A DNA stretch of 62,341 nucleotides, filler included, from Caldilineae bacterium (GCA_037446815.1; 11 parts of 11 records of this genome joined end to end with filler, not necessarily neighbours in it); one strand, 5' to 3'. Counted from the whole stretch's first letter, positions 266-56,974 are shown. The notes: generated from the letters alone by a model not told the origin. Translations and numbers: made by a program.

Positions 266-796
266 ATGCCGCGAGAGGGAACACAGTCGGTAGGGCCGGT
301 GTTGCTGGGGCTGCTTCTCCCCGGCCCCAAACACGGCTACGAATTGCATCAGGAGTTCACCGAGTCGCTGGGCGCTGTGTGGCAGGTGGGGTTGAGCCAG
401 ATGTACGCCCACCTGAAGGCGCTGGAGAACGACGGCCTGGTAACGTGTCAGACCGAAGTGCAGGCGAATCGCCCGCCGCGCAAGATCTACAGCATCACGG
501 ATGAGGGCCGGGGGCACTTCTTGCGATGGCTTCACGAACCTACGCCGCAGATTCGCGGCATTCGGCTGGAGTTTCTAAGCCGCTTGTTCTTGTTCCGCCG
601 GTTGGGGCTGCCGGGCCTGCGCGATTTGATTGACCGGCAGAAGGCGCTGTGCCAAGCGCGCGCAGAGGCGCTGTCCCGCCTGGCGGACGACACCGACGAC
701 CCGTTTCTGCGGCTGGTTCACCGATTTCGCATGGGACAGGTGGAAGCAATCATCCACTGGCTGGATACCTGTCGAGAGACCTATGATTCAGATTGA
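266..796 (+). CDS. PadR family transcriptional regulator
   Basis: LLGLL..GPKHGYEL, SQMYAHLKALENDGLV, RKIYSITDEGR motifs. Confidence 0.92.
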   Translation: MPREGTQSVGPVLLGLLLPGPKHGYELHQEFTESLGAVWQVGLSQMYAHLKALENDGLVTCQTEVQANRPPRKIYSITDEGRGHFLRWLHEPTPQIRGIRLEFLSRLFLFRRLGLPGLRDLIDRQKALCQARAEALSRLADDTDDPFLRLVHRFRMGQVEAIIHWLDTCRETYDSD

Positions 797-2264
797 TTCC
801 CTTTCGGTTTCCTACGGTTCCCGCACGGCGCTGCGCGACGTTTCGCTGCGCATTGCCCCGGGCGAGTTCGTGCTCGTCAGCGGGCCGTCGGGATGCGGCA
901 AGAGCACGCTGGCCCTGGCGCTTGCCGGCCTGATTCCCCAGGCAGTACCTGCGCGCGTGTCCGGCAGGGTTGTGGTGGACGGGCTGGACGCCCAGAGCAC
1001 GCCGGTGCACGCGGTCGCCCGCGAGGTCGGCATCGTGTTTCAGAACCCTGCCACCCAACTATTCAATGTTACCGTGGAGGAGGAGGTGGGGTTTGCGCCG
1101 CGAAATGTCGGCTTGACGCCGGCGGAGATTCCCGCCCGAGTGGAGCAGGCGCTGACGGCGATGGGCATCGCGCACCTGCGCGGGCGGCGTCTGCGGACCC
1201 TGTCCGGCGGAGAGCAGCAGCGCGTGGCCATCGCCTCTGTTCTGGCGCTCCGGCCTCGGGTTCTGATTTTGGACGAGCCGACCGCTTATCTGGACTGGCG
1301 CGGGGTGGAGCAGTTGCTGGCGGCGCTGGAGCGCCTTCGCAACGAGCAAGGCGTAACGATCATCTTGATTGAGCATCGCCTGGCCGCTGTCGCCTCGGTG
1401 GCGACGAGGGTCATCCTTATGGATCGCGGCCAGGTCGTGGCCGACGGGGCGCCGTGGGCCCTGCTATCCGATCGCGCGCTTCTCGCAACGCTGGGGCTGC
1501 GCTATCCCTGGTGCGACGTGGGCCGACGGGTGGATCCTGTTGGGCCGGCGCCGCGCCCGCATGGCGACGAGCCGCTCGTGGCGCTGCGCGGAGTGGCGGC
1601 GGGCTATGGGAGGCACCGCGTGCTGGACGGGCTGGACTTGGCGATCTACCCCGGCCAGTTCGTGGCGCTGGTGGGCGAGAACGGCACAGGCAAGAGCACC
1701 GTGGCGCGGGTGCTGGCGGATGTGCTTTGCCCTGCGCGGGGCACCGTGGATTGGCATCCCGCGCTGAAACGGTTGCCATTGGGGCGGCGCGTGGGGCTTC
1801 TGTTCCAAAATCCCCTGAGCCAGTTGGTATGCGACCACGTGGGCGAGGAAGTTGCCTACGGCCCGGAGAACTACGGGGTCAACACCGACCTCACCGCGCT
1901 GCTTGCCGCCGCCGACTTGGCGGAACTGCGCGAGTCGCGCACGCAGAATCTGAGCGCGGGCCAGCAACAGCGCACCGCGCTGGCGGCGACACTGGCGCTT
2001 CGGCCCCGGCTGCTCATTTTGGACGAGCCGACCATGGGGCAGGATTGGGCGCATTTGAGCAAATTGATGGATTATCTCGTGCATTTGAACGATAACGGGC
2101 AGGCGATTTTGCTCATCACGCATGACGATCGCCTGGTGTGCCGCTACGCGCGGCGCATCGTGCGCATGGTCGGGGGGCGCATCGTCGCCGACGGCGCGGT
2201 TCCGGCGACGACACCGGTGGTCAGCCCTCTGGACGTTGTACCCATGCGCCAGCAGATGATATGA
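783..2264 (+). CDS. ECF transporter ATPase with two ABC domains
   Basis: Two Walker A motifs (GPSGCGKST, GENGTGKST), FQNP Q-loops, LSGGEQQR, ILDEPT; ATG at 783. Confidence 0.9.
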   Translation: MIQIDSLSVSYGSRTALRDVSLRIAPGEFVLVSGPSGCGKSTLALALAGLIPQAVPARVSGRVVVDGLDAQSTPVHAVAREVGIVFQNPATQLFNVTVEEEVGFAPRNVGLTPAEIPARVEQALTAMGIAHLRGRRLRTLSGGEQQRVAIASVLALRPRVLILDEPTAYLDWRGVEQLLAALERLRNEQGVTIILIEHRLAAVASVATRVILMDRGQVVADGAPWALLSDRALLATLGLRYPWCDVGRRVDPVGPAPRPHGDEPLVALRGVAAGYGRHRVLDGLDLAIYPGQFVALVGENGTGKSTVARVLADVLCPARGTVDWHPALKRLPLGRRVGLLFQNPLSQLVCDHVGEEVAYGPENYGVNTDLTALLAAADLAELRESRTQNLSAGQQQRTALAATLALRPRLLILDEPTMGQDWAHLSKLMDYLVHLNDNGQAILLITHDDRLVCRYARRIVRMVGGRIVADGAVPATTPVVSPLDVVPMRQQMI

Positions 2265-5715: not shown

Positions 5716-5815
5716 NNNNNNNNNNNNNNNNNNNNNNNNNNNNNNNNNNNNNNNNNNNNTTAATTAATTAANNNNNNNNNNNNNNNNNNNNNNNNNNNNN
5801 NNNNNNNNNNNNNNN
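5716..5815. other. artificial contig linker N44-TTAATTAATTAA-N44
   Basis: The same linker occurs at 11529-11628, 17334-17433, 23071-23170, 28779-28878, 34424-34523, 40051-40150, 45674-45773, 51259-51358 and 56813-56912; contig lengths fall monotonically from 5713 to 5454. Confidence 0.98.
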
Positions 5816-7260: not shown

Positions 7261-7359
7261 AGTGGCCTCCTGTCAGAGAGATGAACCCGCGCATAGACGC
7301 GAATGCTCGCGAAGGATTGTAGCACGACAAGGGGGAGAGGGCAAAGGGCTGGCGCGCGC

Positions 7360-7534
7360 GACTCGGTTCCAAAGTCTGTTGGCATCCACCGTCATTCTGA
7401 GCGGCGAAGCCGCGAAGAATCTCACCGCTCACCCCGACCCTCTCCCGAAGGGCGAGGGCGTATCGCCTTCGGCTCAGCGTGACAGAGTGGGGAGGCAGCG
7501 CGCGGGACAGACCAACACAGTCTGGAACCGAATC
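7360..7534. mobile_element. MITE-like element carrying REP-like hairpins
   Basis: TIRs GACTCGGTTCCA...TGGAACCGAATC; internal family A and family E hairpins. Confidence 0.7.
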
Positions 7535-7542
7535 CCCGAACA

Positions 7543-7692
7543 GATTCGATTCCAAAGCCTGTTGGTGGCTGTCATTGCGAGGGCGCGGAGCGCCCGAAGC
7601 AATCCCCGGGGCGCGGGGTTGCTTCGCTTCGCTCGCAACGACACACGGGGAGAGTGCCCTTGCGTTTCACCAACACAAGATGGAACCGAATC
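7543..7692. mobile_element. MITE, 150 bp
   Basis: TIRs GATTCGATTCCA...TGGAACCGAATC; flanks CCCGAACA/CCCGAATG; core GTCATTGCGAG...CTCGCAACGAC. Confidence 0.75.
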
Positions 7693-7707
7693 CCCGAATG
7701 CTCGCAC

Positions 7708-7736
7708 TTGCATTTTTGTTCCACGTCGTGTAAACT
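7708..7736 (+). promoter_or_regulatory. recA promoter with overlapping degenerate LexA-type box
   Basis: TTGCAT-17-TAAACT; GCAT-N4-GTTC at 7710-7721 versus the GAAC-N4-GTTC consensus. Confidence 0.55.
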
Positions 7737-7780
7737 ATTGTGCAGGCGCGATAGGCGATTGTGCGCTGGGAGGAGAGAAT

Positions 7781-8857
7781 ATGCCAGAAGCAGGGCGAGA
7801 TAAGGCGCTGGAGACCACGCTACTGGGTCTGCGGAAACGGTTCGGAGATGGGGTCATCATGCGGCTGGGCGAGAGCACCGGCCTCAACGTGGACACGATC
7901 CCCACAGGCTCCCTCGCGTTGGACATTGCCCTGGGCGTCGGGGGCATCCCGCGCGGACGCATCACCGAAATCTACGGCCCAGAAGCATCCGGCAAGACCA
8001 CCCTGTGCCAGCACATCATCGCCGAAGCGCAGAAACGTGGTGGCATTGCAGCATTCATAGACGTGGAGCACGCCCTGGATCCCGCCTATGCCCGTCGGTG
8101 CGGGGTGAACATTGACGAGTTGTACATCTCGCAGCCCGACACCGGCGAGCAGGCGCTAGAGATCGCAGAGGCGCTGGTGCGCAGCGGCGCGGTGGATGTT
8201 GTCGTGATTGACTCCGTTGCCGCGCTGGTGCCCCGCGCCGAGATTGAAGGCGAAATGGGCGACGCTCACATGGGGTTGCAGGCCCGGCTGATGTCGCAGG
8301 CCCTGCGCAAACTCGCGGGGGCCATCAAGCGGTCCAACACAGCCGTCGTGTTCACCAACCAGTTGCGGATGAAAATAGGAGTACTGTTCGGTAACCCGGA
8401 GACCACACCCGGCGGGAATGCCTTGAAGTTCTACGCCTCGGTGCGACTGGACATGCGCCGATTGGAGGCCATCAAACAGGGGGGCGCGGTGGTAGGAAAC
8501 CGCGTCAAGGTCAGCGTCAAGAAAAACAAAGTCGCCCCTCCGTTCCGAGTGGCCGAATTTGAAATCATGTTTGACGAAGGCATCTCCCGCACCGGCGACC
8601 TGCTGGATGTGGCCACGGCCCTGGGCGTCGTGGAAAAGCGCGGCGCCTTCTACTCCTATGGCGACCTCCGACTGGGGCAGGGACGCGATAACGCCAAGGC
8701 GTTTCTGGCCGAGAATCCCGACATGTTCGCCGAAATAGAACAAAAAGTCCGTGACATCGCAGGATTGACACGGCAGGGAGGTGCAGTGTCGGGGCCCTTC
8801 TTCGCGGAAGGGGACGAAGACCTAGAGGACGTAGAAGACATAGAAGGCGACGAGTAG
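7781..8857 (+). CDS. recA: recombinase RecA
   Basis: [53 protein letters not shown]. Confidence 0.99.
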
Positions 8858-13545: not shown

Positions 13546-15234
13546 ATGCGATTGTCCCAACTTTTCGGCAACACGCTGCGCGACGCGCCGTCGGATGCGG
13601 AACTGCCCAGCCACCGCCTGCTCATTCGGGCGGGGATGATCCGCCCCGTGGCCAGCGGCATCTTCGCGCTCCTGCCCCTGGGCTGGCGCGTGCTCAGCAG
13701 GGTTCAGGCCATCATCCGCGAGGAGATGAACCGCATCGGCGGCCAGGAGATGCTCATGCCGCTGGTCAACCCCGCGGACCTGTGGCGCGCCACGGGGCGC
13801 TACGACTCCGTCGGGCCCGAACTGGTGCGCTTCCAGGATCGGGCCGGGCGCGACATGGTGCTCGCCATGACCCACGAGGAGGTCGCCACCCTACTGGCGG
13901 CGGGGGAAATCCGCTCCTACCGGCACCTGCCCGCGCTCATCTACCACTTCCAGACCAAGTTCCGCGACGAGCCGCGCCCCCGTGGGGGACTCATCCGCGT
14001 CCGCGAGTTCATCATGAAGGACTCCTACTCGCTGGACGTGGACGAGGCAGGGCTAGAGGCCCAGTACCAGGCGCACTACGATGCCTACGGGCGCATCTTC
14101 GCCCGCTGCGGGGTCAGGGCCATCGCCGTGCAGGCGTCCACGGGGATGATGGGCGGGGCGGCGTCCCACGAGTGGATGGCAGAGAGTCCCCACGGCGAGG
14201 ACACGCTATTCCTGTGCGACGCCTGCGGATACGCGGCCAACGAGGAGGTCGCCGAATTCGCGCTGCCGCCGCTGCCCGCCGAGGAGCCATTGTCGTTGGA
14301 GGAGGTCGCCACGCCCGACTGCAAGACCATCCAGGCGGTGGCCGATTTCCTGGGCGTGCCCACGCACAAGACCATGAAGGCCGTATTCTACTCCGCGGGC
14401 GAGCGGCTCATCTTCGCCGTCATCCGCGGGGATTTGGAGGTGAACGAGGCCAAGTTGTGCCGCGTTCTGGGCGTGGGCGGCGTCGCGCCGGCGGATGAGG
14501 CAGCGCTGGCGAGGGCCGGCATCGCCGCCGGGTACGCCTCGCCCATCGGCGTGCGCGGCGCGACGGTTGTCGCCGACCCCAGCATCACCACGGGCGCCAA
14601 CTTCGTCGCGGGAGCCAACCGCCCGGGCTACCACGTGCGCAACGCCAACTACCCGCGCGACTTCCGGGCCGACATCTTCGCGGACATTGCCGCGGCCTAC
14701 GATGGCGCGCCCTGCCCGCGATGCGGCGCCCCCCTGCGCTCCACCCGCGCCGTTGAGGTGGGCCACCAGTTCAAACTGGGCACGCGCTACAGCGAGGCCC
14801 TCGGCGCGACGTACCTGGACGCCGACGGCGCCGAGCGGCCCATCGTCATGGGGTCTTACGGCATCGGGCTGGGGCGGCTCATGGCGGTCATCGTGGAGCA
14901 GCACCACGATGAGTGGGGCATCGTGTGGCCCGCGTCCGTCGCGCCGTTTGACGTGCACGTGGTGGGGCTGAACCTGGAGGACGAGGGGGTGCGCGCTGCC
15001 GCCGAGGATGTGTACCGCGAACTGGGCGACGCGGGGCTGGATGTGCTGTATGACGACCGGGCCGAGAGTCCGGGCGTCAAATTCGCCGACGCCGACCTCA
15101 TCGGTGTGCCCGTGCGGGTTACCGTCAGCCGCCGCGCCCTGAAGCAGGGCGGCGTGGAATTCAAGCGGCGCGGCCAGAAGGAGGTCTCGGTGATTCCCCG
15201 CGACCGATTGCTCATCACGTTACGTGGGGGGTGA
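13546..15234 (+). CDS. proS: proline--tRNA ligase with editing domain
   Basis: MTHEE, QTKFRDEPRPRGGLIRVREFIMKDSYS, EVGHQFKLG, MGSYGIG. Confidence 0.98.
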   Translation: MRLSQLFGNTLRDAPSDAELPSHRLLIRAGMIRPVASGIFALLPLGWRVLSRVQAIIREEMNRIGGQEMLMPLVNPADLWRATGRYDSVGPELVRFQDRAGRDMVLAMTHEEVATLLAAGEIRSYRHLPALIYHFQTKFRDEPRPRGGLIRVREFIMKDSYSLDVDEAGLEAQYQAHYDAYGRIFARCGVRAIAVQASTGMMGGAASHEWMAESPHGEDTLFLCDACGYAANEEVAEFALPPLPAEEPLSLEEVATPDCKTIQAVADFLGVPTHKTMKAVFYSAGERLIFAVIRGDLEVNEAKLCRVLGVGGVAPADEAALARAGIAAGYASPIGVRGATVVADPSITTGANFVAGANRPGYHVRNANYPRDFRADIFADIAAAYDGAPCPRCGAPLRSTRAVEVGHQFKLGTRYSEALGATYLDADGAERPIVMGSYGIGLGRLMAVIVEQHHDEWGIVWPASVAPFDVHVVGLNLEDEGVRAAAEDVYRELGDAGLDVLYDDRAESPGVKFADADLIGVPVRVTVSRRALKQGGVEFKRRGQKEVSVIPRDRLLITLRGG

Positions 15235-40150: not shown

Positions 40151-41428
40151 GGGCGGCAGACCACCCCGCCGTCGGGCTTCGCAGAGGCCCGCGATGCGGC
40201 GATGGCCTATCTGAAGACCGCCTACCCAAGCCTGGAGTGGCCCGCGTCGCCCAAGTGGACGGCGGAGGACGTTACCGGCGGCAGGCTTGGCGCGACGACC
40301 TGGAAGTTCTCGGACGCGAGCGGCCTTTCCGTCCTGGTCTCGCTGCCGGTCGTGCCCGATGCCTTGTACAACGTGGAGGTGGCCTTCGGCGACTTCACCT
40401 GGGCCGGCAAGGTGGATTCGGCGGGGAAGGTCGCCCAGGAGCCGACGCCCTTGCCCCCGCTCACGGCCGAGGCGGCCCGCGATGCGGCCATGGCCCACGT
40501 CGCCAGCCTGTACCCCGACCTGGCGCTGCCCGGCGAGTGGGTTGACGTAGACGTGGCGGGCGGGCTGCTCGGCATCAACGCCCGGCGCTACATCGGCGGC
40601 GACTGGACGGTGGACGTGCAGGCCCCCGTCGTGCCCAAGCCGGAATACGCCGTCCGCGTGGCCCATGCCTCGGGCAAGGGCTGGACTGGCCGCATTCTCG
40701 CCGACGGCACGCCCGCCCTGGGCGAGGGCACCGCATTCCTCGCCGATGACGAGCGCCCCACCCGCGTCCTGGAAGCCGTGCGCGCCGACCCCAAAGGCTG
40801 GGAAGGCCGGTACATCCGCGTGGTCGGCTACTACGAGGGATGGGACCTGTTCGGCTCGGTCGGCACCGGCCCCGCCGTTACGCGGAGCGACTGGGTCATC
40901 CGCGACGACGGCGGCGCCATCTACGTGCATCCAGGGAGCGCAGCCGTGGAGGGCCTGGACATCCCGCCCTCGCAGAAGGTGGAAGGCGTGCTCCTGCGCC
41001 TCTTCGCCCAGGTGCGCCTGAACGAAGCCGGCCAGCCCTACCTGTGGGTCGTGCAGGGCGAACGCATCGGCCCCGCGCGCCAGGTCTGGCTGGAGTACGA
41101 GCGTTCCGGCGGGATTGCCGGTTTCCAGGATCGGCTCACCATCTACGCCGACGGGCAGGCGGTGCTCAACCGCAAGGGTGTGGAGACCGCCTTTCAGTTG
41201 ACGACCGAGGAGATGGAACAACTGAAGGGCGCGCTGGCCGCGGCGGACTTCGCCAATCTCAACGAGTCCTACCTGCCCGCCGACCCCTGCTGCGATCGGT
41301 TCACCTACATCATCCGCTCCTACGGGGCGACGGGCGGAGAACCGCACACGGTAACGACCATGGACGGGACGGTGCCGCCGCAACTGACGCCGGTACTAGA
41401 AGCATTGAACCATCTCGTCAGCCGGTAG
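40151..41428 (+). CDS. multidomain hypothetical protein (5' truncated) with a C-terminal emfourin-like domain
   Basis: Repeated AARDAAMA units; C-terminal RSGGIAG...CCDRFTY...HTV...P..L. Confidence 0.65.
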   Translation, partial: GRQTTPPSGFAEARDAAMAYLKTAYPSLEWPASPKWTAEDVTGGRLGATTWKFSDASGLSVLVSLPVVPDALYNVEVAFGDFTWAGKVDSAGKVAQEPTPLPPLTAEAARDAAMAHVASLYPDLALPGEWVDVDVAGGLLGINARRYIGGDWTVDVQAPVVPKPEYAVRVAHASGKGWTGRILADGTPALGEGTAFLADDERPTRVLEAVRADPKGWEGRYIRVVGYYEGWDLFGSVGTGPAVTRSDWVIRDDGGAIYVHPGSAAVEGLDIPPSQKVEGVLLRLFAQVRLNEAGQPYLWVVQGERIGPARQVWLEYERSGGIAGFQDRLTIYADGQAVLNRKGVETAFQLTTEEMEQLKGALAAADFANLNESYLPADPCCDRFTYIIRSYGATGGEPHTVTTMDGTVPPQLTPVLEALNHLVSR

Positions 41429-41489
41429 GGGCGGCCCTTGCGTTCGCCCGAACCCTGCGCGACGCCTATTGAATCCCGTTACTCCGATA

Positions 41490-41681
41490 GCAGGGGCAGG
41501 TCGTAGGGGCAGGTCGTAGGGGCAGGTCNNNNNNNNNNNNNNNNNNNNNNNNNNNNNNNNNNNNNNNNNNNNNNNNNNNNNNNNNNNNNNNNNNNNNNNN
41601 NNNNNNNNNNNNNNNNNNNNNNNNNNNNAGGGGCAGGTCGTAGGGGCAGGTCGTAGGGGCAGGTCTCAGACCTGCCCCTAC
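41490..41681 (+). repeat. 13-bp tandem array of a GTAG-REP left arm ending in a full REP
   Basis: (GTAGGGGCAGGTC)n across a 100-N gap, ending GTAGGGGCAGGTCTCAGACCTGCCCCTAC; related REP end at 28879-28899. Confidence 0.85.
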
Positions 41682-41840
41682 GTCAATTACACGGCGTGGC
41701 AACCTCCATGATGCCCTCTACGTTCTCTCCGCAGCCTGATCCGAACATCGCTTCTGCGAGGCTCTCCTGCGCCACCTTCAGATTTCATGCCACCATAACG
41801 CCGCACAGTTGTCAGTCTGAGCGGCGAAGCCGCGAAGGAT

Positions 41841-44800
41841 CTAGTACGCCGTGTCCGTGGCCAGCACCGCTGCCGTGAGGCTCAGGAGCCGACCCGCGCG
41901 GCCTATCTTCGCGGGATCAACCGCCTCGGGAGCGTCCCCCGGCAGGTGCGAATGCGCATCCGCGCCCGGCCACGACAGGGTAATCATCGGGTAATTCGTC
42001 TGCAACCGCTGGGACAGGTAGAACGCGGAGTGGAGTCCCAGGCCCGCCGTCTTGACGGAGATGCCCAGCCGCCGCGCGCCCGTCTGCACCATCTCGGTGA
42101 TGCGGTCGCTGCTGGAACGCCAGGCCAGCACTGCGTCGCCGTCGCCCGCGCCCACGCCCTCAACCTGGAAGACCGCGACGACCTTGAGGTCCGAGAGGCC
42201 CGACCGCGTGCTCAAGTACTGGTACAGCGCGGGCGTCTGGTGCAGTTCTCCGCCCGCCCACGCCACGAAAAGCACCGTGCGCTTGGGCTTGAAGTTCCAC
42301 GCCTTCCACGAGCGGATGATTTCCAACATGGTGGCCACGCCGCTGGCATTGTCGTTCGCGCCCGGGTACAGCACGCCATTGGCCGATCCCAGCCCGTCGT
42401 AGTGGGCCAGGATCACCACCATCTCCGAATCCAGCGCGACATCCTCGCCCGGCCACATGGCCATCACATTCCTGTACGTGATGTCCTGCTGCGCGATGGG
42501 GGCGAAGGCCGCCTGCACGCGCGCGTCGGTCTGCACCCAGAACCCCTCACCCTCCGCCAGCGCCGCCCGACGCTCCCGCAGCGCCGCTAGGTTGTATCCA
42601 GAGCCATTGAGAATGCGGTCGGCGGCCTGCGGCGTGATGAACAGCACCGGCATGGCCTGCATGGTCCGCGCCGTGCCGGGCGTGGATGAGCCGGGCAACT
42701 CCCGACGGAACATGACGCTCGGATCGTCGGCGATGACGAGCGCCGCCCGCGCGCCCACGTACATCGGCAAACTCCCCGGCCCGTAGAACCAGGGGTACGA
42801 GGCCAGCCACTGGTTGTCATACTCCACCAGCAGGATGCGGTCCGTCCGGGTCGCGTCGGCCTCCGACAGCCCCAGAGCAGCCCTGACCGCGCTCACATTG
42901 CCCTCGGGCGCGGCGTTCACGGCCACATACGCGATGGGGCCCTCCGCCACGAGCGCCTGCCTGGACAAGAGTTCGGTCGTCTCGGAGAAGTCCACGCCCA
43001 TGCGGAGCGTTAGGCGCTGGCCCGTAGCGTCCCAGGCCTCAACGGCCGTCTTGCCCTGGAGCGCCACGATGCGGCTCTGGATCGTCTGGAAGTAGGTCCA
43101 GTCCTCCCCGGCCGTAACCAGCCCCAACTCCTCAAACTGCCGGGCAATCCAATCCGCGGCGGCCTCGGCGCCCGGCGTGCCAATTTGCCGCCCGCCGAAC
43201 TCCGGCCCGGCGAGGATGGCCACATCCTCCATGGCTCGGCTTGCGTCAAACGTCTCGCCCAACGGCTTGTACCGCGCCCAGATGCCAGTGCTCTGCATCG
43301 TCCAGACGCCCACGCCAAGAACGACACAGGCCGCCAGCAGCGTGTAGCGGTTGAACAGCGCCTTCATGCTCAAGGTCAGTTCCTCGCAAAGCCGCCGCAG
43401 CCCCTCTCCCAGCAGGGTGAAGGTTACGATGGCAACCAGGAACGCCAGCGCCGGGTACACCGTGGCCCAGGGGAAACTGCGGAAGGAGCGCCACGAGTTG
43501 GCGAGCATCACGCCCCATTCCGGGATGTCGTAGTACGTGAGGAGCGGCGGCCCGCCCTCGCCTTCCGCCGCGAACCCGCCGCCGATGAACACGCCCAGGA
43601 ACCCCAACTCGCCCAGAATCATCAGCGCGCCGCCCATCTCCAAGAAGGCCAGGCTCACCATGGTGGGCCAGATGTTGGGCAGAACGTGGCGCGTCAGGAT
43701 TTGCCCCTGGCCCGCGCCCGTGGCCACCGCGCCCTCTATGTACGCCATGGGGCGCACCGAGATGACCTGGGCGCGGATGTTCTGCATGACCTCGGGCCAG
43801 CCGATGACCAGCAGGCCGAACACGAAGGCATACAGCCCCTGGCGAATGCCGGCGGCATAGACCACCAGCGTCGCCAACAGGAGCGCGGGGAACGAGTTGA
43901 CCATCTCGCCCAAGGCCATAAGCGCGCGGTCCAGCAGGGTGTCGTGGAACCACCCCGCCAGAAACCCAAAGATGCCCCCAATGACCAGTCGGCCCGCCAC
44001 GGCCAGGAAAGCCAGCATCATGGTGCGGCGCGCGCCCGCCAGGAGCAGGCTCAAGATGTCGCGCCCCTGGGCATCGCTGCCGAGCGGGAACACATCCGAA
44101 GGCCGAAACGGCGGCGTGTACGTAATGCCCTCAACCTCAAGGCGACTGGCCGTGGCGTAGGGGTTGTGGGGAGCCACCTGCGGCCCGGCCAGGACCACCA
44201 GCAGCAGCGCAATGCCCAGGACGGCCCCCAGCGCCAGGGCGGGATTCCCCACAGTCGCCTTGCGCCACGCCCGAAGCCGCCCCCACCGCATGGACTGCGC
44301 CAGGCGCGACATCTCCTGCCTGGACTCCTCGGTGATGCGCGCGTCCACCGGCAGCGGGGCCAGGTCGCGCGCCTGTTTGCGCCGTTCGCGCAGCCCCCGC
44401 AGCGTGATGGCCCGCACGAACCCCGTCCAGGCCAGTTCCAGCCAGTTGCCGATCTCCATCTGCGCGGAACCTGCATCCTCGGCCTGCCGCAGCCGCGGAT
44501 CCAGCACCCGATAGGCCAGGTCCAGGATGCCGTTGACCAGGACGAAGAAGAACCCCGTCGCCAGCACCAGCGCCGAAGCCGCGTCTATGTCATAACCCTG
44601 GAGCCGCTCCAGCAGATGCTTGCCCAGGCCCGGCCAGCCGAAGAACACCTCCACCACCGGCAGGCTGCTGAGCGCGAACCGCAGCGAGGACACGATGGCA
44701 GTGAGCACGGTCCCCGCGGCGTTGGGCAGGATGTGCCCGAACCAAATCTCGGAGTTGGGCAGCCCTTTGGCGCGGGCGGTGCGCACGAAATCCTCGCTGA

Positions 44801-45404
44801 TGAGATTCTCCATGTACACCGACGTGAGCCGCGCAACCTGGGCCACCGGCCTCGCCGCCAAGACCAGCACGGGCAGCACCAGGTGCGAATCCCAGCCGAA
44901 CCCGCCGACGGGCACCAGGCGCATTCCCGTGCGCTTGTAGAACTCAATGGCGCCCAGTTGCAGGAGCACAGCGAGGAAGAAACTGGGCGTGGAGACGCCG
45001 ATGATGGACAACAGGAGCATAGAGAGCGACGCGGCGCGGCGGCGAATCGCGGCGAAGGCGATGCCCAGGAGGCCGCCAATGACCCCGCCCAACGCCATCG
45101 CCAGCAACAGCAGCACCGAACTGTTCCAGAGAGACGTCCCGACCAACTGGGTCATCGGCAGGCGCTCACCCTGGCGGAGCATGTAGCCGCTAACCCGCGT
45201 GTATTCGCCCAGGTCTCCGCGCGGGATGCCATCCCACAGCGCGAGCGTCTGTCCCCATGCCTGCTGCGCGACCTCGCCGATGGGCGCGGGCTGGAGCAGG
45301 CGCTGGCGCATGGCCAGGTCTTGGGTGAAGTAGGCCACGTAGGTGATGGCGAACAGCACCACGATTGCGGCAACGATGCGGCGCAGGACGAACCGTGTGA
45401 GCAT
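41841..45404 (-). CDS. fusion protein: DppB-like permease, DppC-like permease, PA domain, M28 peptidase-like domain
   Basis: DFVRTARAKGL and YIEGAVATGA EAA motifs, LGSDAQGRD, PEWG; AHYD, GANDNASG, PKRTVLF. Confidence 0.9.
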   Translation of the reverse strand: MLTRFVLRRIVAAIVVLFAITYVAYFTQDLAMRQRLLQPAPIGEVAQQAWGQTLALWDGIPRGDLGEYTRVSGYMLRQGERLPMTQLVGTSLWNSSVLLLLAMALGGVIGGLLGIAFAAIRRRAASLSMLLLSIIGVSTPSFFLAVLLQLGAIEFYKRTGMRLVPVGGFGWDSHLVLPVLVLAARPVAQVARLTSVYMENLISEDFVRTARAKGLPNSEIWFGHILPNAAGTVLTAIVSSLRFALSSLPVVEVFFGWPGLGKHLLERLQGYDIDAASALVLATGFFFVLVNGILDLAYRVLDPRLRQAEDAGSAQMEIGNWLELAWTGFVRAITLRGLRERRKQARDLAPLPVDARITEESRQEMSRLAQSMRWGRLRAWRKATVGNPALALGAVLGIALLLVVLAGPQVAPHNPYATASRLEVEGITYTPPFRPSDVFPLGSDAQGRDILSLLLAGARRTMMLAFLAVAGRLVIGGIFGFLAGWFHDTLLDRALMALGEMVNSFPALLLATLVVYAAGIRQGLYAFVFGLLVIGWPEVMQNIRAQVISVRPMAYIEGAVATGAGQGQILTRHVLPNIWPTMVSLAFLEMGGALMILGELGFLGVFIGGGFAAEGEGGPPLLTYYDIPEWGVMLANSWRSFRSFPWATVYPALAFLVAIVTFTLLGEGLRRLCEELTLSMKALFNRYTLLAACVVLGVGVWTMQSTGIWARYKPLGETFDASRAMEDVAILAGPEFGGRQIGTPGAEAAADWIARQFEELGLVTAGEDWTYFQTIQSRIVALQGKTAVEAWDATGQRLTLRMGVDFSETTELLSRQALVAEGPIAYVAVNAAPEGNVSAVRAALGLSEADATRTDRILLVEYDNQWLASYPWFYGPGSLPMYVGARAALVIADDPSVMFRRELPGSSTPGTARTMQAMPVLFITPQAADRILNGSGYNLAALRERRAALAEGEGFWVQTDARVQAAFAPIAQQDITYRNVMAMWPGEDVALDSEMVVILAHYDGLGSANGVLYPGANDNASGVATMLEIIRSWKAWNFKPKRTVLFVAWAGGELHQTPALYQYLSTRSGLSDLKVVAVFQVEGVGAGDGDAVLAWRSSSDRITEMVQTGARRLGISVKTAGLGLHSAFYLSQRLQTNYPMITLSWPGADAHSHLPGDAPEAVDPAKIGRAGRLLSLTAAVLATDTAY

Positions 45405-45773
45405 ACGCGTATCTCCGACGGGCAGCAGGGTTGTGGCAGCGCACCTGCGAGGGCCCTAACAGTATAGACCCGTGTAGTTTGCCACAGGTTCACCGTTCCC
45501 GCAAGAACGCGCCTGCGGGCCGCCACTCGGTTCCAAAGCCTCTTGCTAACCGTCATTGCGAGGGCGCGAGCGGGAATACCACACCTAGCGCGGCGGCCTT
45601 AGCCCCGCGCGACCATCCCTCCCCAACTGTCATTCTGAGCCGCGAAGCGGCGAAGAATCTCGCGCCATCGGGCNNNNNNNNNNNNNNNNNNNNNNNNNNN
45701 NNNNNNNNNNNNNNNNNTTAATTAATTAANNNNNNNNNNNNNNNNNNNNNNNNNNNNNNNNNNNNNNNNNNNN

Positions 45774-51358: not shown

Positions 51359-51523
51359 GGCGGTGGGGCGCGGGCGCCCGGCAACAGGCGTGGGCGCGGC
51401 AACCAGCGCGGCCTCGCGCTGCAGCGCCCGCGCGCCCGCCCAAATCAGCCCGGCCTCCACGACGAGCAGCACGGCGATGAGGGCGATGAGTACGTTTCGG
51501 TTGAGGTTGCGTAGTTTGGTCAT
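51359..51523 (-). CDS. membrane-anchored or secreted protein, N-terminal fragment
   Basis: MTKLRNLNRNVLIALIAVLLVVEAGLIW.., cut by the contig end. Confidence 0.55.
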
Positions 51524-51525
51524 TG

Positions 51526-51628
51526 TAGCAGCCTTTGGCCGTTAGCAATCAGCGATCAGCGGTCAGCGATCAGCAGTCAGCGGTCAGCGGATTACCGCTG
51601 GTGGCTGAACGCTGAATGCTGACCGCTA
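51526..51628. repeat. inverted heptamer array spanning TAG stop to the next start
   Basis: About 9 YAGCNRT units, a spacer, then about 4 inverted units; begins on the TAG stop of the TolB-like gene. Confidence 0.9.
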
Positions 51629-52813
51629 CTGTGTTGGCCTCCACACGGCAAGCCCCTCCATGCCCGGGTTGTCCGGGAATGCGAACAGCGCGCCGGTCTT
51701 CGTGTCCAGAATCCACAGGTTGCCGTCCGGCAGGTAGCCCTGCCCTTGCCAGACGAGCGTGTAGGACAAGTAATGCCCATCGGGCGACCACGCCAGGAAC
51801 TGCGGCGAGGACTCCGGGCTGCCGCCGATGGGGAACGCCGTGGCCGCTCCATCCTCCAGCGTGTGGATGTACAGGGTGTGCGCGCCTTCGCTCTCGCTCC
51901 ATACGATGCTGGCCAGCCGCGCGCCATCCGGCGACCAGGCCAAGTCCATGACGTAGCCCCGGTCCAGGAGCGCATAGCCGCCTGTCCCATCGGGCCGCAC
52001 CAGCCGCACGCCGTTGCCTTTCTCCACGTCCGTGTACGCCAGCCACTCGCCCGTCGGCGACCAGCGAACTGTCGTGGCTTCGGGGATGAGCAGGGACAGC
52101 GCCCGCTCGCTCACGTTGTACAGCCAGGCGGCCGTCGGCACTTGCTCCGGCAGGGTCGGCGCGCGACCTGCGGGCGCATAGGCCACCGCGTTGGGAGCGA
52201 CGAAAGCCAACGAGGTGCCATCGGGCGACCAACTTATCGCCACGGCGCTGACGGTTAGCGTGAGCGGGTGGGTTTCGGTGGCCAGCGTCGCGACGTTGGC
52301 GATGATGAGTTCGCCGGTAATGGGGCCGCCTTCCCGGCCGGGGAACACGGTGCGCAGCCACGCGACGCGCCGCCCGTCGGGAGACCAGGCCGGCTCGGCC
52401 CATCCGAAGCCCGACGCCTCGCCCAATTGTCGCTCCACCGGCTTGTCGCCCTCCAGGGTCATCAGATACACGCCGCCGACAGAAGCCCGGCCGCCCCTTG
52501 TGGAAACCTGCGTCGCCAGCCGCACGAAGGCCAGCATCTTGCCGTCGGGCGACCAAGTTGCGAAAGCCTCGTTCTCGGGCGTCTGGGTCAGCGGCTTGAT
52601 GCGCTGGCCCGCGGCGTCGGACAGGAACAGATCCAGTTGGCCCTCGGTGCCGACGGCAACGTAGGCGATTTGCCGCGTGGCCTGCCCACCCGACGGCGGC
52701 CGCAGCCACAGGTACGCCACGCCCGCGGCCGTGAGGATCACGCACACGCCCAGCGCCACGACGATGCGGGCGAGGAGGGTGTTCAGTTTCTCTGGCGTAA
52801 CATCACTGCTCAT
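51626..52813 (-). CDS. membrane-anchored TolB-like (PD40) beta-propeller protein
   Basis: N-terminal TM; six WSPDG/WSPTG repeats. Confidence 0.9.
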   Translation of the reverse strand: MSSDVTPEKLNTLLARIVVALGVCVILTAAGVAYLWLRPPSGGQATRQIAYVAVGTEGQLDLFLSDAAGQRIKPLTQTPENEAFATWSPDGKMLAFVRLATQVSTRGGRASVGGVYLMTLEGDKPVERQLGEASGFGWAEPAWSPDGRRVAWLRTVFPGREGGPITGELIIANVATLATETHPLTLTVSAVAISWSPDGTSLAFVAPNAVAYAPAGRAPTLPEQVPTAAWLYNVSERALSLLIPEATTVRWSPTGEWLAYTDVEKGNGVRLVRPDGTGGYALLDRGYVMDLAWSPDGARLASIVWSESEGAHTLYIHTLEDGAATAFPIGGSPESSPQFLAWSPDGHYLSYTLVWQGQGYLPDGNLWILDTKTGALFAFPDNPGMEGLAVWRPTQ

Positions 52814-52838
52814 AGCCGTCAGCAATCAGCAATCGGCA
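52813..52838. repeat. heptamer array, 3' arm flanking the four-helix-bundle gene
   Basis: Plus strand TAGCCGT CAGCAAT CAGCAAT CGGCA. Confidence 0.8.
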
Positions 52839-53221
52839 TCAATGTTCACTTGCCCACGGTCTTCTTTCATGCCTCTCAGCGTTTGCAGAAATGACGTGAG
52901 CATGCGCTTGACCTCTATGACTCGCTCCTCAAGTTGCTTGTGTTCCGATTCACCCAGAAGACCCAGGTCGCGTGCGAGCAGAAAGTGGTACTCCGTTTCG
53001 CTCGCCGAGCCCATCGCGATTTGGACAAAGCGGGCAAGCTCGGCATCGCCGCTTCTGCCGCAACCCTCCGCCAGATTGGCGGCGATTGAAGCAGAGGCCC
53101 GCCTGATCTGACTGGTCAGTCCATAGGTCTCTGTCTTCGGGAACTCTGCTGTCGCTCTGTAAACCGCTATCGTCAATTCGTGCGCCTTGTGCCACACCTT
53201 CAGCGTCCGGAAATCTCGCAC
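52826..53221 (-). CDS. four helix bundle protein (23S rRNA IVS protein / Avd-like)
   Basis: DFRTLKVWHKAH, FPKTETYGLTSQIRRASASIAANLAEGCGR, IAMGSASETEY; SD AAGGAGGT. Confidence 0.95.
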   Translation of the reverse strand: MRDFRTLKVWHKAHELTIAVYRATAEFPKTETYGLTSQIRRASASIAANLAEGCGRSGDAELARFVQIAMGSASETEYHFLLARDLGLLGESEHKQLEERVIEVKRMLTSFLQTLRGMKEDRGQVNIDADC

Positions 53222-53267
53222 ACCCACCTCCTTGAGCAATTCACTGCCGGCCCTCATCCATCCGGGT

Positions 53268-53313
53268 GCTGATTGCTGATGGCTGACGGCTGATGGCTGA
53301 CCGCTGACTGCTA
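53268..53313. repeat. heptamer array, 5' arm flanking the four-helix-bundle gene
   Basis: Minus strand TAGCAGT CAGCGGT CAGCCAT CAGCCGT CAGCCAT CAGCAAT CAGC. Confidence 0.9.
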
Positions 53314-55758
53314 GTAGTGATACTGCCTGCTCGCCGTGATGAGCGCCAGGTTGACGATTTGGCCGACTTTGCCGATGTGGCTTGCCTGGGCGTCGTCGGG
53401 CGAGCCGCCGCGGAACGCGCTGGGCGCCTGATGCCATGCCAGCGTCGCCGACTTGTCGGCCAGTTCGGCGCAATAGGCGTGGGCGCAGGCCGTGCCCCTG
53501 AGCACCGAAGCGCCGGTAACTTGCGCGCTGCGCTTGAGCAATTCGCTCAACGTGTTGCTCTTGGCCTCGGCGAGGAGCGGGTCTTCACCGCTGCCCACGC
53601 TGCCTAGGTGAATCACCGCGTTGCGCTCCAACGAGCGATAGGGCGTGAACTCGGCCAGATATGTCTGCGCGCCGCTGGTCTCCGAATAGCCCGCGGCCCA
53701 GATGTTGAACAGCACGGTGCGGCGCGGCTTGAACTGCTCGGCGTGCCACAGGCGGGCGATCTCCAGCAGGATGCCCACGCCGGCGGGGCCGTCGCTTGCG
53801 GACACGAACGGGTGGCCCGGATTCGGCTCGGGCATGTCGTAGTGCGTGGACACGACCAGCGCCTCCTTGTCCAGCGACGTGTCGTTTCCGGGCAGGATGC
53901 CGAGGACGTTGTATCCCGTGCGCTCCTGCGGCTCGCCCAGTTCCACCCGAACGCGCACCTGCATCGGCAGCGGCTGGGCGAACCACGGCTTGTCGGGCGA
54001 GGCCGCCCCGAACGCGTCCGCCTGCGCCTGCAAGTCGGCCACGGTATAGCCCGCCGGTTGCAGCAGGCGGTCGGCGGCCTCGGGGCGGACGTGCAGGATG
54101 GGGAACGTCGGCTTTTCCATGAAGCCGAATTCGCCCGCGGCCCAGTCGGTGTGCGGCGCGGCGTCCTCGGTAACGATGAGGATGGCCTGCGCGCCGCGGA
54201 TTAGGGCCTCGGTGTCAAAGGCCGCGGGCATGTTCTGGCCCAGCACAAGGACGATTTGCCCGCGCAGGTCTAGCCCGCGGAATTCGGGATACCGCACGTT
54301 CTGGCGCGCGAAGCCGACAAAGGTCAGCGGCGCCTGGGCGCTGCCGGAACCGCCGTGCCGATACACCTGCTCGCCAAAGTCCGCGCCGTGCGCCAGGGCG
54401 ACGGTATGCCCGGCTGTCTGGGCCTCCAGAATCGGCACGCTGAGGCGCGGGGCCACCATGCGGACAAGCGGCTGCAGGAATTCCTGGCCGCCTGCCGCGG
54501 GCAACACACCGTAGGCTTCCATCTGCTCGGCGATGTACTCGGCGGCGGCGCGCGCTCCCTCGGTGCCGAAGCCGGGGTCGCCCTGCTGAAGTTCCACGAT
54601 GCGCGCCGCGTGTTCCAGCGCGTGCTCCGCGCTGAACTGGCTTGCCAGTTTCGCGTAGGACACGCCCGGACTGATTTGGCTGACAATGTACCAAGTGAGT
54701 AGGGTGATGGCCGCGACGACCACGACCATGCGCTTGGAGATGATGGCCGCAGTGTTCACCCCGGCCTCGCGCACGATTCTGCGCAGGCCCTCGCCCGTGA
54801 GGTTGAACCCCAGGACGGCCACGAAGAAGGCCATGGCCGGCCAGAACACCATCCACGGCGATGTGCGGATGTAGGCGCGGGCGCCCGCCAGCATGGCGCC
54901 CCATTCGGGCACGTCGGCGATGGCCACCGTCCCGCCGAACCCCTCGGTCTGCGCGCCGCCGCCGATGAACACGCCCACGAATCCCAGTTCGCCCAGGATC
55001 ATCAGCACGGCGCCCATCTCCAGGAGCGCCAGCACCACCAACGCGGGCAGGACATTGGGCAAGATGTGCCGCACGATGATGCCCGTCTCGGTCAGGCCGA
55101 TGACCCGCGCCCCCTCCACAAAGGGCTTCTGGCGCAGGCTCACGAACTCGCTGCGGATGTACTGGGCGATCTCGCCCCAGCCCACCAGACACAACGCGAT
55201 GAGGAACGCCGACAGCCCCTTGCGGATGTCCAGCGCCAGGATGAGAATCATGCCGGTCAGCAGCATGGGCAGCGACGACAGAATCTCCACCATCCCCATG
55301 ATGACGCGATCCGCCAGGCCGCCGGCGCGCCATCCGGCGATGGCCCCCAACCCGAATCCTAGCAGCAGCCGCGCCATCGCCACGAACAGGCACGCCACCA
55401 GGGTGTTGCGCGCGCCGTACAGGAGCAGGCTCAGCACGTCGCGCCCCCACTGGTCTGACCCCAGCGGGAACTCCGCGGAGGGCGGGAACGGCGGGAAGAC
55501 CAATTGGCCGTTGATCATCTCGGACGAGCGCTGGGCCGAGAGGTACGGGTTCTGCGACGCGAAGCGCGGCCCGACGACGGCCACGGCCAGCAGGAACAGC
55601 ACGATGAGCATGCCCGCCACGAACGGGAAGTTCATCGTGATGAGCCGCCAGCGGAACCGCCCCGTGCGGATGGTGGTGTCGGGCGCGGTGCTGTTGCGCC
55701 TCTTGCGTATACGTTCCAGAGCGTCCGAAAGTCGTAACATACCGAAGCCTTCAGCCAT
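53311..55758 (-). CDS. fusion protein: DppC-like permease, PA domain, degenerate M28 domain (start may be 55740)
   Basis: LGSDQWGRD, FVEGARVIG, PEWGAM; LDLRGQIVL PA motif; STHYD, PRRTVLF. Confidence 0.88.
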   Translation of the reverse strand: MAEGFGMLRLSDALERIRKRRNSTAPDTTIRTGRFRWRLITMNFPFVAGMLIVLFLLAVAVVGPRFASQNPYLSAQRSSEMINGQLVFPPFPPSAEFPLGSDQWGRDVLSLLLYGARNTLVACLFVAMARLLLGFGLGAIAGWRAGGLADRVIMGMVEILSSLPMLLTGMILILALDIRKGLSAFLIALCLVGWGEIAQYIRSEFVSLRQKPFVEGARVIGLTETGIIVRHILPNVLPALVVLALLEMGAVLMILGELGFVGVFIGGGAQTEGFGGTVAIADVPEWGAMLAGARAYIRTSPWMVFWPAMAFFVAVLGFNLTGEGLRRIVREAGVNTAAIISKRMVVVVAAITLLTWYIVSQISPGVSYAKLASQFSAEHALEHAARIVELQQGDPGFGTEGARAAAEYIAEQMEAYGVLPAAGGQEFLQPLVRMVAPRLSVPILEAQTAGHTVALAHGADFGEQVYRHGGSGSAQAPLTFVGFARQNVRYPEFRGLDLRGQIVLVLGQNMPAAFDTEALIRGAQAILIVTEDAAPHTDWAAGEFGFMEKPTFPILHVRPEAADRLLQPAGYTVADLQAQADAFGAASPDKPWFAQPLPMQVRVRVELGEPQERTGYNVLGILPGNDTSLDKEALVVSTHYDMPEPNPGHPFVSASDGPAGVGILLEIARLWHAEQFKPRRTVLFNIWAAGYSETSGAQTYLAEFTPYRSLERNAVIHLGSVGSGEDPLLAEAKSNTLSELLKRSAQVTGASVLRGTACAHAYCAELADKSATLAWHQAPSAFRGGSPDDAQASHIGKVGQIVNLALITASRQYHY

Positions 55759-55816
55759 CAGCCTTCAGCCGTCAGCAAAAGTTTCCTGATCGCTGACCGC
55801 TGATGGCTGACCGCTA
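55746..55816. repeat. inverted heptamer array between dppB and dppC-M28
   Basis: Minus strand TAGCGGT CAGCCAT CAGCGGT CAGCGAT CAG...GCTGACG GCTGAAG GCTGATG GCTGAAG GCT. Confidence 0.9.
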
Positions 55817-56737
55817 AATCTCTCGTTGCTTCAATCGTGGATCCACATACCGATATGAAATATCCAGCAGTACGTTCACGAGCATAAACGTTAGCCCGAT
55901 GACCAGCGCCATGCCCGCCACGCCGATGTCCTGGCGGTTGCGGATGGCGTCCAACAGGGCCGCGCCAATGCCCGGCCAGCCCAGGAAGTACTCCACCACG
56001 GGCAGGCTTCCCAGCGAGAATCGCAGCGACACTCCCAGCGCCGTCAGGACGGGAACGGCGGCGTTCGGATAGGCGTGGCCGCGCGTTACCATGGTATCGT
56101 ACAGGCCCTTGGCGTGGGCGGTGCGGATGTAGTCCTGCTCCAGAATCTCCGAGAAGGTCATGTAGGCGATGCGGGCGAGATGCGCGAGGGGCCGGGCCGC
56201 CAGCACCAGCGTCGGGATGACGAGATGCGCGTCCCACCCGAATCCCCCGACCGGAACCAACCGCACGCCCGTGGCCCGGAACCAGTAGATTTCCGCAATC
56301 TGGAGCAGGGCCGCGGCGAAGAAACTGGGCACCGACACGCCGATGAGCGTGGCCGTCATCGTGCCGAGCGACACCGGCGAGCGGCGATGGATGGCGGCGA
56401 ACACGCCCACAGGGATGCCGATGAGCCCGGCCACGAGGAGGGAGATGAGCAGTAGCCCCATGCTCTTCGGGTAGGCATCGCCGATCATCTGGGCCACGCT
56501 CACCTGCCGCGAGGAGCGCCCCGAGCGCACGGTGATGGTGCCCATGTCGCCGCGCAGGAGGTTGCCCACGTAGTCCACCGTGGATGTCCAGGCGTATTCG
56601 GCGGCCGGGAGCGGGTTGTACGAAGGCGCGGGCGATGTGGAATTGCGCGCCATGCGCATCCCGAAGAACGCGAAGAACACGATCCCAAGGCTGACCGCTA
56701 GGGTGAACGCCAGACGTCTGATCGCGAATCGGAGCAT
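55814..56737 (-). CDS. DppB/OppB-like ABC permease
   Basis: DYIRTAHAKGL EAA motif, VVEYFLGWPGIG, YRYVDPRL. Confidence 0.93.
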   Translation of the reverse strand: MLRFAIRRLAFTLAVSLGIVFFAFFGMRMARNSTSPAPSYNPLPAAEYAWTSTVDYVGNLLRGDMGTITVRSGRSSRQVSVAQMIGDAYPKSMGLLLISLLVAGLIGIPVGVFAAIHRRSPVSLGTMTATLIGVSVPSFFAAALLQIAEIYWFRATGVRLVPVGGFGWDAHLVIPTLVLAARPLAHLARIAYMTFSEILEQDYIRTAHAKGLYDTMVTRGHAYPNAAVPVLTALGVSLRFSLGSLPVVEYFLGWPGIGAALLDAIRNRQDIGVAGMALVIGLTFMLVNVLLDISYRYVDPRLKQREI

Positions 56738-56767
56738 TGGCTTCTCTTCTGGACTGACCTTTCGCCT

Positions 56768-56796
56768 AGTATACGCCGAACGGCGTCTGTGGGCAA
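56768..56796 (-). promoter_or_regulatory. promoter directly upstream of dppB
   Basis: Minus strand TTGCCC-17-TATACT. Confidence 0.55.
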
Positions 56797-56974
56797 AGGC
56801 GGTTACAACAAGNNNNNNNNNNNNNNNNNNNNNNNNNNNNNNNNNNNNNNNNNNNNTTAATTAATTAANNNNNNNNNNNNNNNNNNNNNNNNNNNNNNNN
56901 NNNNNNNNNNNNTTGCGAGATTCTTCGCGGCTGCGCCGCTCAGAATGACAGTTCACGGGGCGGTTCGCGGCGAT

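Follow-up and report, generated by a model that had tools for sequence, protein, structure and literature searches.

The gene at 41841..45404 on the minus strand of a 62,341-nucleotide stretch of Caldilineae bacterium DNA (GCA_037446815.1; the whole stretch is hereafter called the window) encodes a single-chain protein of 1187 amino acids, P0001, which opens with an ATG start codon. It comprises two permease modules resembling DppB and DppC, a thirteenth transmembrane (TM) helix (TM13), and an ectodomain of the PA/M28 peptidase fold. In peptide-family ATP-binding cassette (ABC) importers, both specificity and the switching on of the ATPase are commonly ascribed to a separate binding protein. 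Judged by fold and motifs, the membrane part of P0001 is a type I importer translocator of the peptide (Dpp/Opp/Nik) family. The ectodomain is, by its active-site residues, a non-peptidase homologue of M28 in which the general base is replaced by Gly. Homologous proteins recur widely enough to indicate that the fusion of PA-M28 to a peptide-family permease is a real family, conserved in Anaerolineae. We consider it quite possible, if short of probable, that the ectodomain acts as the importer's tethered peptide receptor and stands in place of the binding protein.

The open reading frame (ORF), Pfam, NCBIfam and AlphaFold2 agree on the architecture proposed by the initial annotation, that is, two EAA-motif permeases, an extra TM helix and PA and M28 domains within 1187 residues. 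The Pfam profile PF00528 (BPD_transp_1) matches two stretches of P0001 (E 1.5e-46). PF04389 (Peptidase_M28) matches residues 979-1175 (E 9e-20) with 71.7 bits, its cut-off being 21.3. The OppC_N match is weak and lies under its own cut-off. By NCBIfam, residues 83-306 are of the OppB/NikB type and residues 393-671 of the OppC/NikC type, with a best score of 150 bits against equivalog cut-offs of 300-590. Because all NCBIfam scores lie far under these cut-offs, P0001 is no orthologue of any named permease.

The DppB/OppB-like module occupies residues 1-305 (44490..45404; all features of this gene lie on the minus strand), as placed by Pfam, NCBIfam, AlphaFold2 and an alignment with OppB, and has six TM helices. 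Its alignment covers M. tuberculosis OppB (8j5q_B) and E. coli OppB (8z21_A) over their full length, and its periplasmic TM1-TM2 'scoop' region (residues 36-83) has the normal length. A basic, cytoplasmic linker of low model confidence follows (residues 306-385, 44250..44489), with 18 Lys and Arg residues in the loop 291-388. The DppC/OppC-like module (residues 386-680, 43365..44249) is recognised by Pfam, NCBIfam and fold match, and it superposes on E. coli DppC (8z1x_B) with Z 28.3 and a root-mean-square deviation (rmsd) of 2.1 over 275 residues. E. coli DppB and DppC have six TM helices each and cytoplasmic EAA coupling helices (PMC12136057, excerpts). The corresponding loops of P0001 lie at residues 203-232 in the B module (44709..44798) and 551-580 in the C module (43665..43754). 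Across 52 homologues R208 and G214 are invariant in the former, and E557, A559 and G563 in the latter. From these loops and the DppC superposition, both permease modules look functional.

Structure modelling, also suggested by the initial annotation, was performed with AlphaFold2 and 52 full-length homologues. It gave 6+6 TM helices, a further helix at residues 686-706 and a well-folded ectodomain (pLDDT 82.6, pTM 0.74). A model of residues 1-706 only has a pTM of 0.83, against 0.74 for the full length. The latter value seems higher than would be expected for two bodies without defined packing. The confidence of the scoop helix does not depend on the ectodomain (without it, 83, 92, 92, 81 and 53 for the blocks of residues 31-80, against 77, 90, 92, 83 and 52 in the full-length model). 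Two helices come after the EAA loop of the C module, so its end is cytoplasmic, and TM13 (residues 686-706; 43287..43364) takes the chain from there to the outside. Homology and model topology together predict an extracytoplasmic PA/M28 ectodomain. A cytoplasmic M28 domain, a possibility against which the initial annotation had cautioned, is rejected on this predicted topology.

The ectodomain begins with the N-terminal part of the M28 fold (residues 707-790, 43035..43286; boundaries approximate), placed from the model and a fold match, with the same domain order as in the aminopeptidase PaAP. The PA insert follows (about residues 791-950, 42555..43034) and then the M28 core (residues 951-1187, 41844..42554), which is recognised by Pfam, HMMER and fold match and ends in a Tyr that is a hallmark of the family. 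The PA assignment of the initial annotation stands by fold and not by profile, as PF02225 finds nothing in P0001 at E<=0.1. On the PA-less Aeromonas/Vibrio aminopeptidase (AAP, 1amp), the ectodomain aligns over 262 residues with Z 30.9 and rmsd 2.3. The PA-containing aminopeptidases cover 370-384 residues (6hc6, Z 29.6; 2ek8, Z 28.8), and transferrin receptor (TfR1) covers about 410 residues at Z 26-27. The alignments are longer with PA-containing than with PA-less folds, which shows that the PA insert is real despite the Pfam miss.

The codons of the vestigial metal site span 41946..42404, as located by HMMER and MAFFT alignments. A gap-free HMMER alignment with AAP pairs H1001 (codon 42402-42404) with H97, D1003 with D99, D1018 (42351-42353) with D117, G1052 (42249-42251) with E151, and E1053 (42246-42248) with E152. 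E151 of AAP we take to be the general base, and the other aligned AAP residues zinc ligands. In a MAFFT alignment with canonical relatives, E1082 of the motif QVEG (42159-42161) falls on the Asp of NLDM, and H1153 (41946-41948) falls on the last His. MAFFT introduced a compensated six-residue gap at the Glu-Glu pair; the site was therefore read gap-free from a conserved Trp, which agrees with HMMER. The alignments thus bear out the initial reading that GEE has become GGE and NxDM has become QVEG, while the HYD motif and the C-terminal His are retained. Four metal ligands (H1001, D1018, E1053 and H1153) are identical in P0001, and the fifth is changed from Asp to Glu (E1082). The M28 fold is present and the catalytic residue, the general base, is missing from it, which is why the ectodomain is classed as a non-peptidase homologue.

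The loss extends across the family. Among 96 permease-linked M28 domains, the general-base position holds Gly in 49, Ala in 13 and Glu in 25, and in 20 of these 25 the Glu is followed by Gly. The Glu-Glu pair is intact in five of the 96 domains and the site is fully canonical in three. None of the 25 scored fused genes derived from genomes has a canonical site (the gene of locus L046 lies outside the scored set). An intact GEE motif in the homologues, which the initial annotation had named as evidence that would count against it, is thus not what the family has. Relatives of at least 1300 amino acids that lack a permease are fully canonical in 47 of 92 domains. Among 49 proteins shorter than 1000 amino acids with no detected permease, every site of the GGE/GAE or GEG type belongs to a fragment. 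All of these entries lack a signal peptide or membrane anchor at their start, and in three of them (P0118, P0138 and P0165) the first residues fall within the DppC module. Where proteins of about 500 amino acids do have an N-terminal signal peptide or anchor, most keep the Glu-Glu pair. By these alignments a dead site appears to go with permease fusion and to be the rule in fused proteins.

The metal ligands are less uniform. The Asp-Glu-His triad of one metal site is kept in 57 of the 96 permease-linked domains, and the His-Asp-Asp/Glu triad of the second site is kept in 11. A subfamily carries Arg in place of a ligand, in 17 domains at the Asp179 position and in 14 at the His256 position. 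Four orthologues with 78-83% ectodomain identity (P0003, P0004, P0006 and P0007) have Tyr at His1001. With a metal site that varies in this way, metal-dependent recognition of the peptide N-terminus cannot be the mechanism shared by the family.

Degenerate sites are also seen in the giant relatives without a permease (for example P0022 and L050:886-5745), where one of two M28 modules is often affected. Of their 92 domains, 21 have Gln as the general base and 26 have Asn in place of the last His. Such frequent degeneration implies that pseudo-M28 modules are common in the lineage. The C-terminal residue shows a separate pattern. Residue 1187 (41844-41846) is Tyr. Among 94 permease-linked proteins, 80 end in Tyr and 85 in an aromatic residue, and Tyr also ends the products of 23 of the 25 fused genes taken from genomes; relatives without a permease mostly end in Arg. 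By analogy with the C-terminus of PaAP, this Tyr could act as a self-ligand for the cleft.

The fused architecture recurs well beyond the window. A search with the ectodomain returned 60 proteins in the length band, nearly all with both PF00528 and PF04389, from metagenome-assembled genomes of Anaerolineae/Chloroflexi. In the databases they are named only 'ABC transporter permease subunit' or 'hypothetical protein'. With a threshold of E<=1e-30, 156 representative clusters came from an exhaustive search, and M28 is joined to a permease module in 95 of the 210 collected proteins. Three fused forms are found, namely B-C-M28 proteins of about 1150-1310 amino acids, C-M28 proteins of about 780-990 amino acids, and forms with an N-terminal ATPase or CoaE domain. 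Dephospho-CoA kinase (CoaE) domains precede B-C-M28 in two clusters (P0045 and P0047). Matches to the ectodomain query occur in 4/4 genomes of the order, 96/300 of the class and 4/301 of a phylum-wide sample, and these counts include PA-M28 proteins without permease fusion. When the best full-length genome matches in the class were fetched, 20 of 20 were fused genes. A locus search with a single protein gave five loci, all from close relatives, and a search of a protein atlas returned generic M28 clusters only. The literature searched, including excerpts of PMC8129789, contains no account of the fusion.

Dozens of clusters at 50% identity contain the fusion, and it also lies on long contigs from the class Anaerolineae. 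This recurrence rules out an assembly chimera, which the initial annotation had allowed for. In a single pairwise comparison, between the window gene and its orthologue at locus L001, dN/dS is 0.09 for the B module, 0.05 for the C module and 0.08 for the M28 core, and it is 0.24 for residues 707-960 (the N-terminal M28 part and PA), the most variable part. By this measure, purifying selection acts on the M28 core as strongly as on the permease. A FastTree tree of 235 M28 domains requires eight changes of the 'permease-linked' label; it establishes neither that the fusion arose once nor whether fusion or decay came first.

The window consists of contigs some 5.5 kb long, linked by 100-nucleotide N blocks that recur about every 5.6 kb (at 5716, 11529, 15808, 17334, 23071, 28779, 34424, 40051, 41529, 45674, 51259 and 56813). 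The piece that bears the gene is 40151-45673 (5523 nucleotides). Similarity to long contigs of the related genome G001 ends at the N blocks, with 40151-45511 corresponding to L001 and 51363-56810 to locus L050. Adjacency across N blocks is hence meaningless, and the window offers only 5.5 kb of neighbourhood evidence. The claim of the initial annotation that no substrate-binding protein (SBP) or ATPase gene is adjacent could not be read from such a chain, and it holds on the contig of the orthologue. This orthologue, 84% identical, lies on the 64.8-kb contig of L001, where the gene stands alone. Upstream of it are a divergent ORF of 269 amino acids (no PDB relative) and then a radical-SAM gene. 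Downstream are a convergent ORF with an Emfourin-like domain and then genes for GDPD, enoyl-CoA hydratase and 3-hydroxyacyl-CoA dehydrogenase. Within 10 kb on either side, neither an SBP nor an ABC ATPase was identified.

Twenty diverse loci were surveyed, with 177 of 220 neighbouring ORFs scanned; the 43 farthest from the target were dropped, at L040-L049. SBP_bac_5 is absent from the scanned ORFs of 19 of the 20 loci. At the remaining one (L041) it is a member of another cluster, SBP-SBP-OppC-OppB, which lies on the opposite strand. DppD/F-type ATPases with the oligo_HPY domain are near none of the 20 in the scanned flanks. The possibility raised by the initial annotation, that homologues always carry a cognate SBP, is not supported by these loci. 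Such genes are present elsewhere in related genomes. There are 14 SBP_bac_5 matches in G001 and 13 in G002, some of them away from any permease, and G001 has six DppD/F pairs (ABC_tran with oligo_HPY). Three of the nine canonical OppC loci in G001 lack an oligo_HPY ATPase on their contig, which makes a supply in trans plausible for the fused permease as well.

A split paralogue of the fused gene is encoded on another piece of the window, also on the minus strand. Its DppB-like permease is a separate protein of 307 amino acids (P0062, 55814..56737). The second protein, of 815 amino acids, joins a DppC-like module, a TM helix and a fully degenerate M28 domain, whose site reads H, D, AAGY, G, G (P0061, 53311..55758). 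The third gene of the operon encodes a membrane-anchored PD40/TolB-like beta-propeller (P0063, 51626..52825). The fourth, cut off at the end of the window piece, encodes a membrane-anchored protein of about 1620-1650 amino acids with a double PA-M28 and Peptidase_MA_2. The order B, C-M28, PD40 propeller, giant peptidase is found in all six genomes examined (L050-L055), and no SBP or DppD/F gene flanks the operon in these six. The closest relatives without a permease are likewise giant (1600-2100 amino acids), membrane-anchored double PA-M28 proteins with canonical sites. The operon ties the family to extracellular proteolysis.

Some fused relatives carry an N-terminal ATPase domain of the LolD/MacB type, in five of the 20 loci (L030, L031, L033, L034 and L039; at about 7-11.5 kb in each locus). 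A duplicated MacB_PCD/FtsX permease gene lies alongside in 5/5 of these and an HlyD gene in 4/5; at L034 the genes are separated by a 1.1-kb interval in which our own ORF filter called no ORF. The fused ATPase domain has lost the ABC signature and the H-loop His in 17/17 cases and Walker A in 12/17. Considered as the motor of the family, this degenerate domain is an unlikely candidate.

We propose that one chain would supply the complete membrane part of a Dpp/Opp/Nik-type importer and that TM13 would place the PA/M28 pseudo-enzyme outside the cell. There the two-lobed clamp may hold a peptide uncut and deliver it to the DppB/DppC pore, the task of a separate SBP_bac_5 protein in conventional importers. 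The ATP would be hydrolysed by DppD/F-like ATPases whose genes lie at other loci. Such a clamp is conceivable from known members of the fold. In PaAP, peptides occupy the PA-M28 groove, where an arginine of the PA domain grips their carboxy-terminus, and the PA domain itself moves through about 40 degrees (PMC10449631, excerpts). Judged from PDB titles, general-base mutants are the standard inactive, substrate-holding forms of the M28 fold; GCPII E424A, for instance, is titled 'inactive mutant in complex with N-acetyl-aspartyl-...'. The need for a receptor follows from the E. coli system, where DppBCDF alone is inactive and requires DppA and ATP, and where the DppB scoop motif enters the DppA cleft (PMC12136057, excerpts). 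Since a canonical translocator needs a receptor, the locus has none, and a constrained domain of peptidase fold is attached, a tethered receptor is the simplest reading. That the dead clamp also captures its peptides uncut and activates the translocator without any SBP of the periplasmic-binding-protein (PBP) fold is a somewhat more tentative suggestion.

Several observations weigh against a receptor role. The metal site is no constant of the family, with the Asp-Glu-His triad and the second site kept only in the 57 and 11 of 96 domains given above. The 13-14 SBP_bac_5 matches in related genomes could provide an SBP in trans. In the B module the scoop region retains its normal length, and as the scoop engages DppA in E. 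coli, a classical SBP partner is equally compatible with it. No ATPase partner was identified near the loci scanned. We know of no PA-M28 domain that feeds a transporter.

These points lend some weight to an ordinary SBP-dependent importer, served by SBP_bac_5 and DppD/F proteins in trans, in which the ectodomain would be auxiliary (a nicastrin-like size filter or lid, an envelope anchor or a stabiliser). The SBP_bac_5 matches outnumber the canonical permease sets of the related genomes, and the three of nine OppC loci in G001 without an ATPase on their contig suggest that sharing in trans is usual. We nevertheless think this unlikely, given that a 480-residue domain placed a few residues past TM13 would occupy the face where an SBP docks, that SBP genes are absent from the scanned ORFs of 19 of the 20 loci, and that an accessory domain would hardly be expected to show the degree of constraint that the M28 core shares with the permease. 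The dead M28 domain might instead be a docking platform that binds no substrate itself and recruits active extracellular peptidases of the same fold to the mouth of the permease. This idea draws on the canonical, giant, membrane-anchored double PA-M28 proteins that are the closest permease-free relatives, and on the co-operonic giant peptidase and PD40 propeller of the split paralogue in 6/6 genomes. Some members also hold a dead and a canonical M28 domain in the same chain, as P0065 does. The single-chain gene, though, is monocistronic, with no peptidase gene recurring beside it in the flanks scanned at the 20 loci, and docking would leave activation of the translocator unexplained; we regard it, too, as improbable.

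A role outside nutrition is harder to sustain. The protein might belong to an envelope machine linked to MacB/FtsX, with a mechanical or regulatory outer domain, as the ATPase-bearing forms at five of 20 loci and their MacB_PCD/FtsX (5/5) and HlyD (4/5) neighbours would suggest. Alternatively, it might be a Nik/Cnt-like importer of metals or metallophores that uses the Asp-Glu-His triad; the best NCBIfam matches include permease models of the nickel/cobalt type, all under cut-off. The type I importer fold with intact EAA loops, the decay of the fused ATPase domains, the lack of any such domain or neighbour in P0001 and the paralogue operon, which points to peptides, make either version distinctly unlikely. 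Least likely of all, and in our view very improbable, is that the ectodomain is still an enzyme that trims peptides at the pore, an option offered by the initial annotation. Its metal ligands, four identical and one changed from Asp to Glu, might work with another base; the PDB title of 2anp calls the Glu151-to-His form of AAP 'functional', and three to four permease-linked relatives have a complete site. Against this, Gly has no side chain to serve as a base, and the position is Gly or Ala in 49 and 13 of the 96 domains. The Glu-Glu pair survives in only five, ectodomains 78-83% identical have lost His1001, and whole subfamilies put Arg at ligand positions, so trimming is disfavoured.

In its B and C six-TM modules and EAA loops, P0001 resembles DppBCDF and OppBCDF (E. 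coli 8z1v-8z1x and 8z21; M. tuberculosis 8j5q and 8wd9). It differs from them in uniting both modules in a single polypeptide, to which a 13th helix and a PA/M28 ectodomain of 480 residues are added, and in lacking SBP and DppD/F genes at its locus. GlnPQ and OpuA also carry an extracytoplasmic receptor domain covalently on a type I importer membrane domain; their receptors have the PBP fold, whereas the candidate receptor of P0001 has a peptidase fold. PaAP (8acr), B. subtilis BSAP/YwaD (6hc6) and Aneurinibacillus AM-1 aminopeptidase (2ek8) have the same two-lobed PA and M28 arrangement (Z 27-30). They are secreted, active di-zinc enzymes with a Glu-Glu pair, while P0001 is anchored to a permease and has a Gly at the base position and a conserved C-terminal Tyr.

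The eukaryotic proteins TfR, GCPII/PSMA-like and nicastrin share with P0001 a PA and M28 ectodomain on a single membrane helix, but they have an added helical dimerisation domain and no transporter joined to them. The PA and M28 fold of TfR is a receptor and not an enzyme, and P0001 has likewise lost the general base; TfR has lost the metal ligands, which P0001 keeps. Nicastrin is a dead fold of the PA-M28 type with a non-catalytic role. The C39-like domain of HlyB-type exporters tethers the substrate. Like the ectodomain of P0001 it is a degenerate peptidase on an ABC transporter, with its catalytic Cys replaced by Tyr and its cargo left uncleaved (PMC8277102, excerpts). It differs in being cytoplasmic, of cysteine-peptidase fold and part of a type IV exporter, where the P0001 domain is predicted to be outside and belongs to an importer-type protein.

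If the tethered-receptor interpretation is correct, these proteins would constitute a new class of receptor for ABC transport, a widespread family in which a fused pseudo-peptidase has replaced the SBP, and they would be the first peptide-family importers to work without one. They would also show the PA/M28 fold turning from an enzyme into a receptor in bacteria, a counterpart of its reuse in transferrin receptor and nicastrin. With ectodomain relatives, permease-free ones included, in the 96 of 300 sampled genomes of the class, such proteins would help to explain how proteolysis outside the cell is coupled to uptake in the abundant, protein-degrading Anaerolineae.

Some further features were observed. 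P0065 (1679 amino acids) carries a dead and then a canonical M28 domain after its permease modules; the gene L036:5476-10569, of 1697 amino acids, is of similar length, and the M28 domain scored in it is dead. On the piece that bears the fused gene, an ORF on the plus strand (40202-41428) is convergent to it and has a C-terminal Emfourin-like domain (E 1.6e-7). Its counterpart at L001 lies at 13685-15052 on the minus strand (E 6.7e-7), and this DNA is shared by the window, L001 and L017. Emfourin is a metalloprotease-inhibitor family. Elsewhere in the window, an ORF at 630-2264 (plus strand) encodes 544 amino acids with two ABC ATPase domains and matches TIGR04520 at 364 bits, above cut-off; it is apparently a fused EcfA1-EcfA2. 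This double ATPase was considered as a partner of P0001 and rejected, as it is an ECF-transporter ATPase and sits on another window piece. Finally, the 531-amino-acid ORF at 7262-8857 (plus strand) has a RecA domain from residue 181, so that either its start has been called early or it has a long N-terminal extension.

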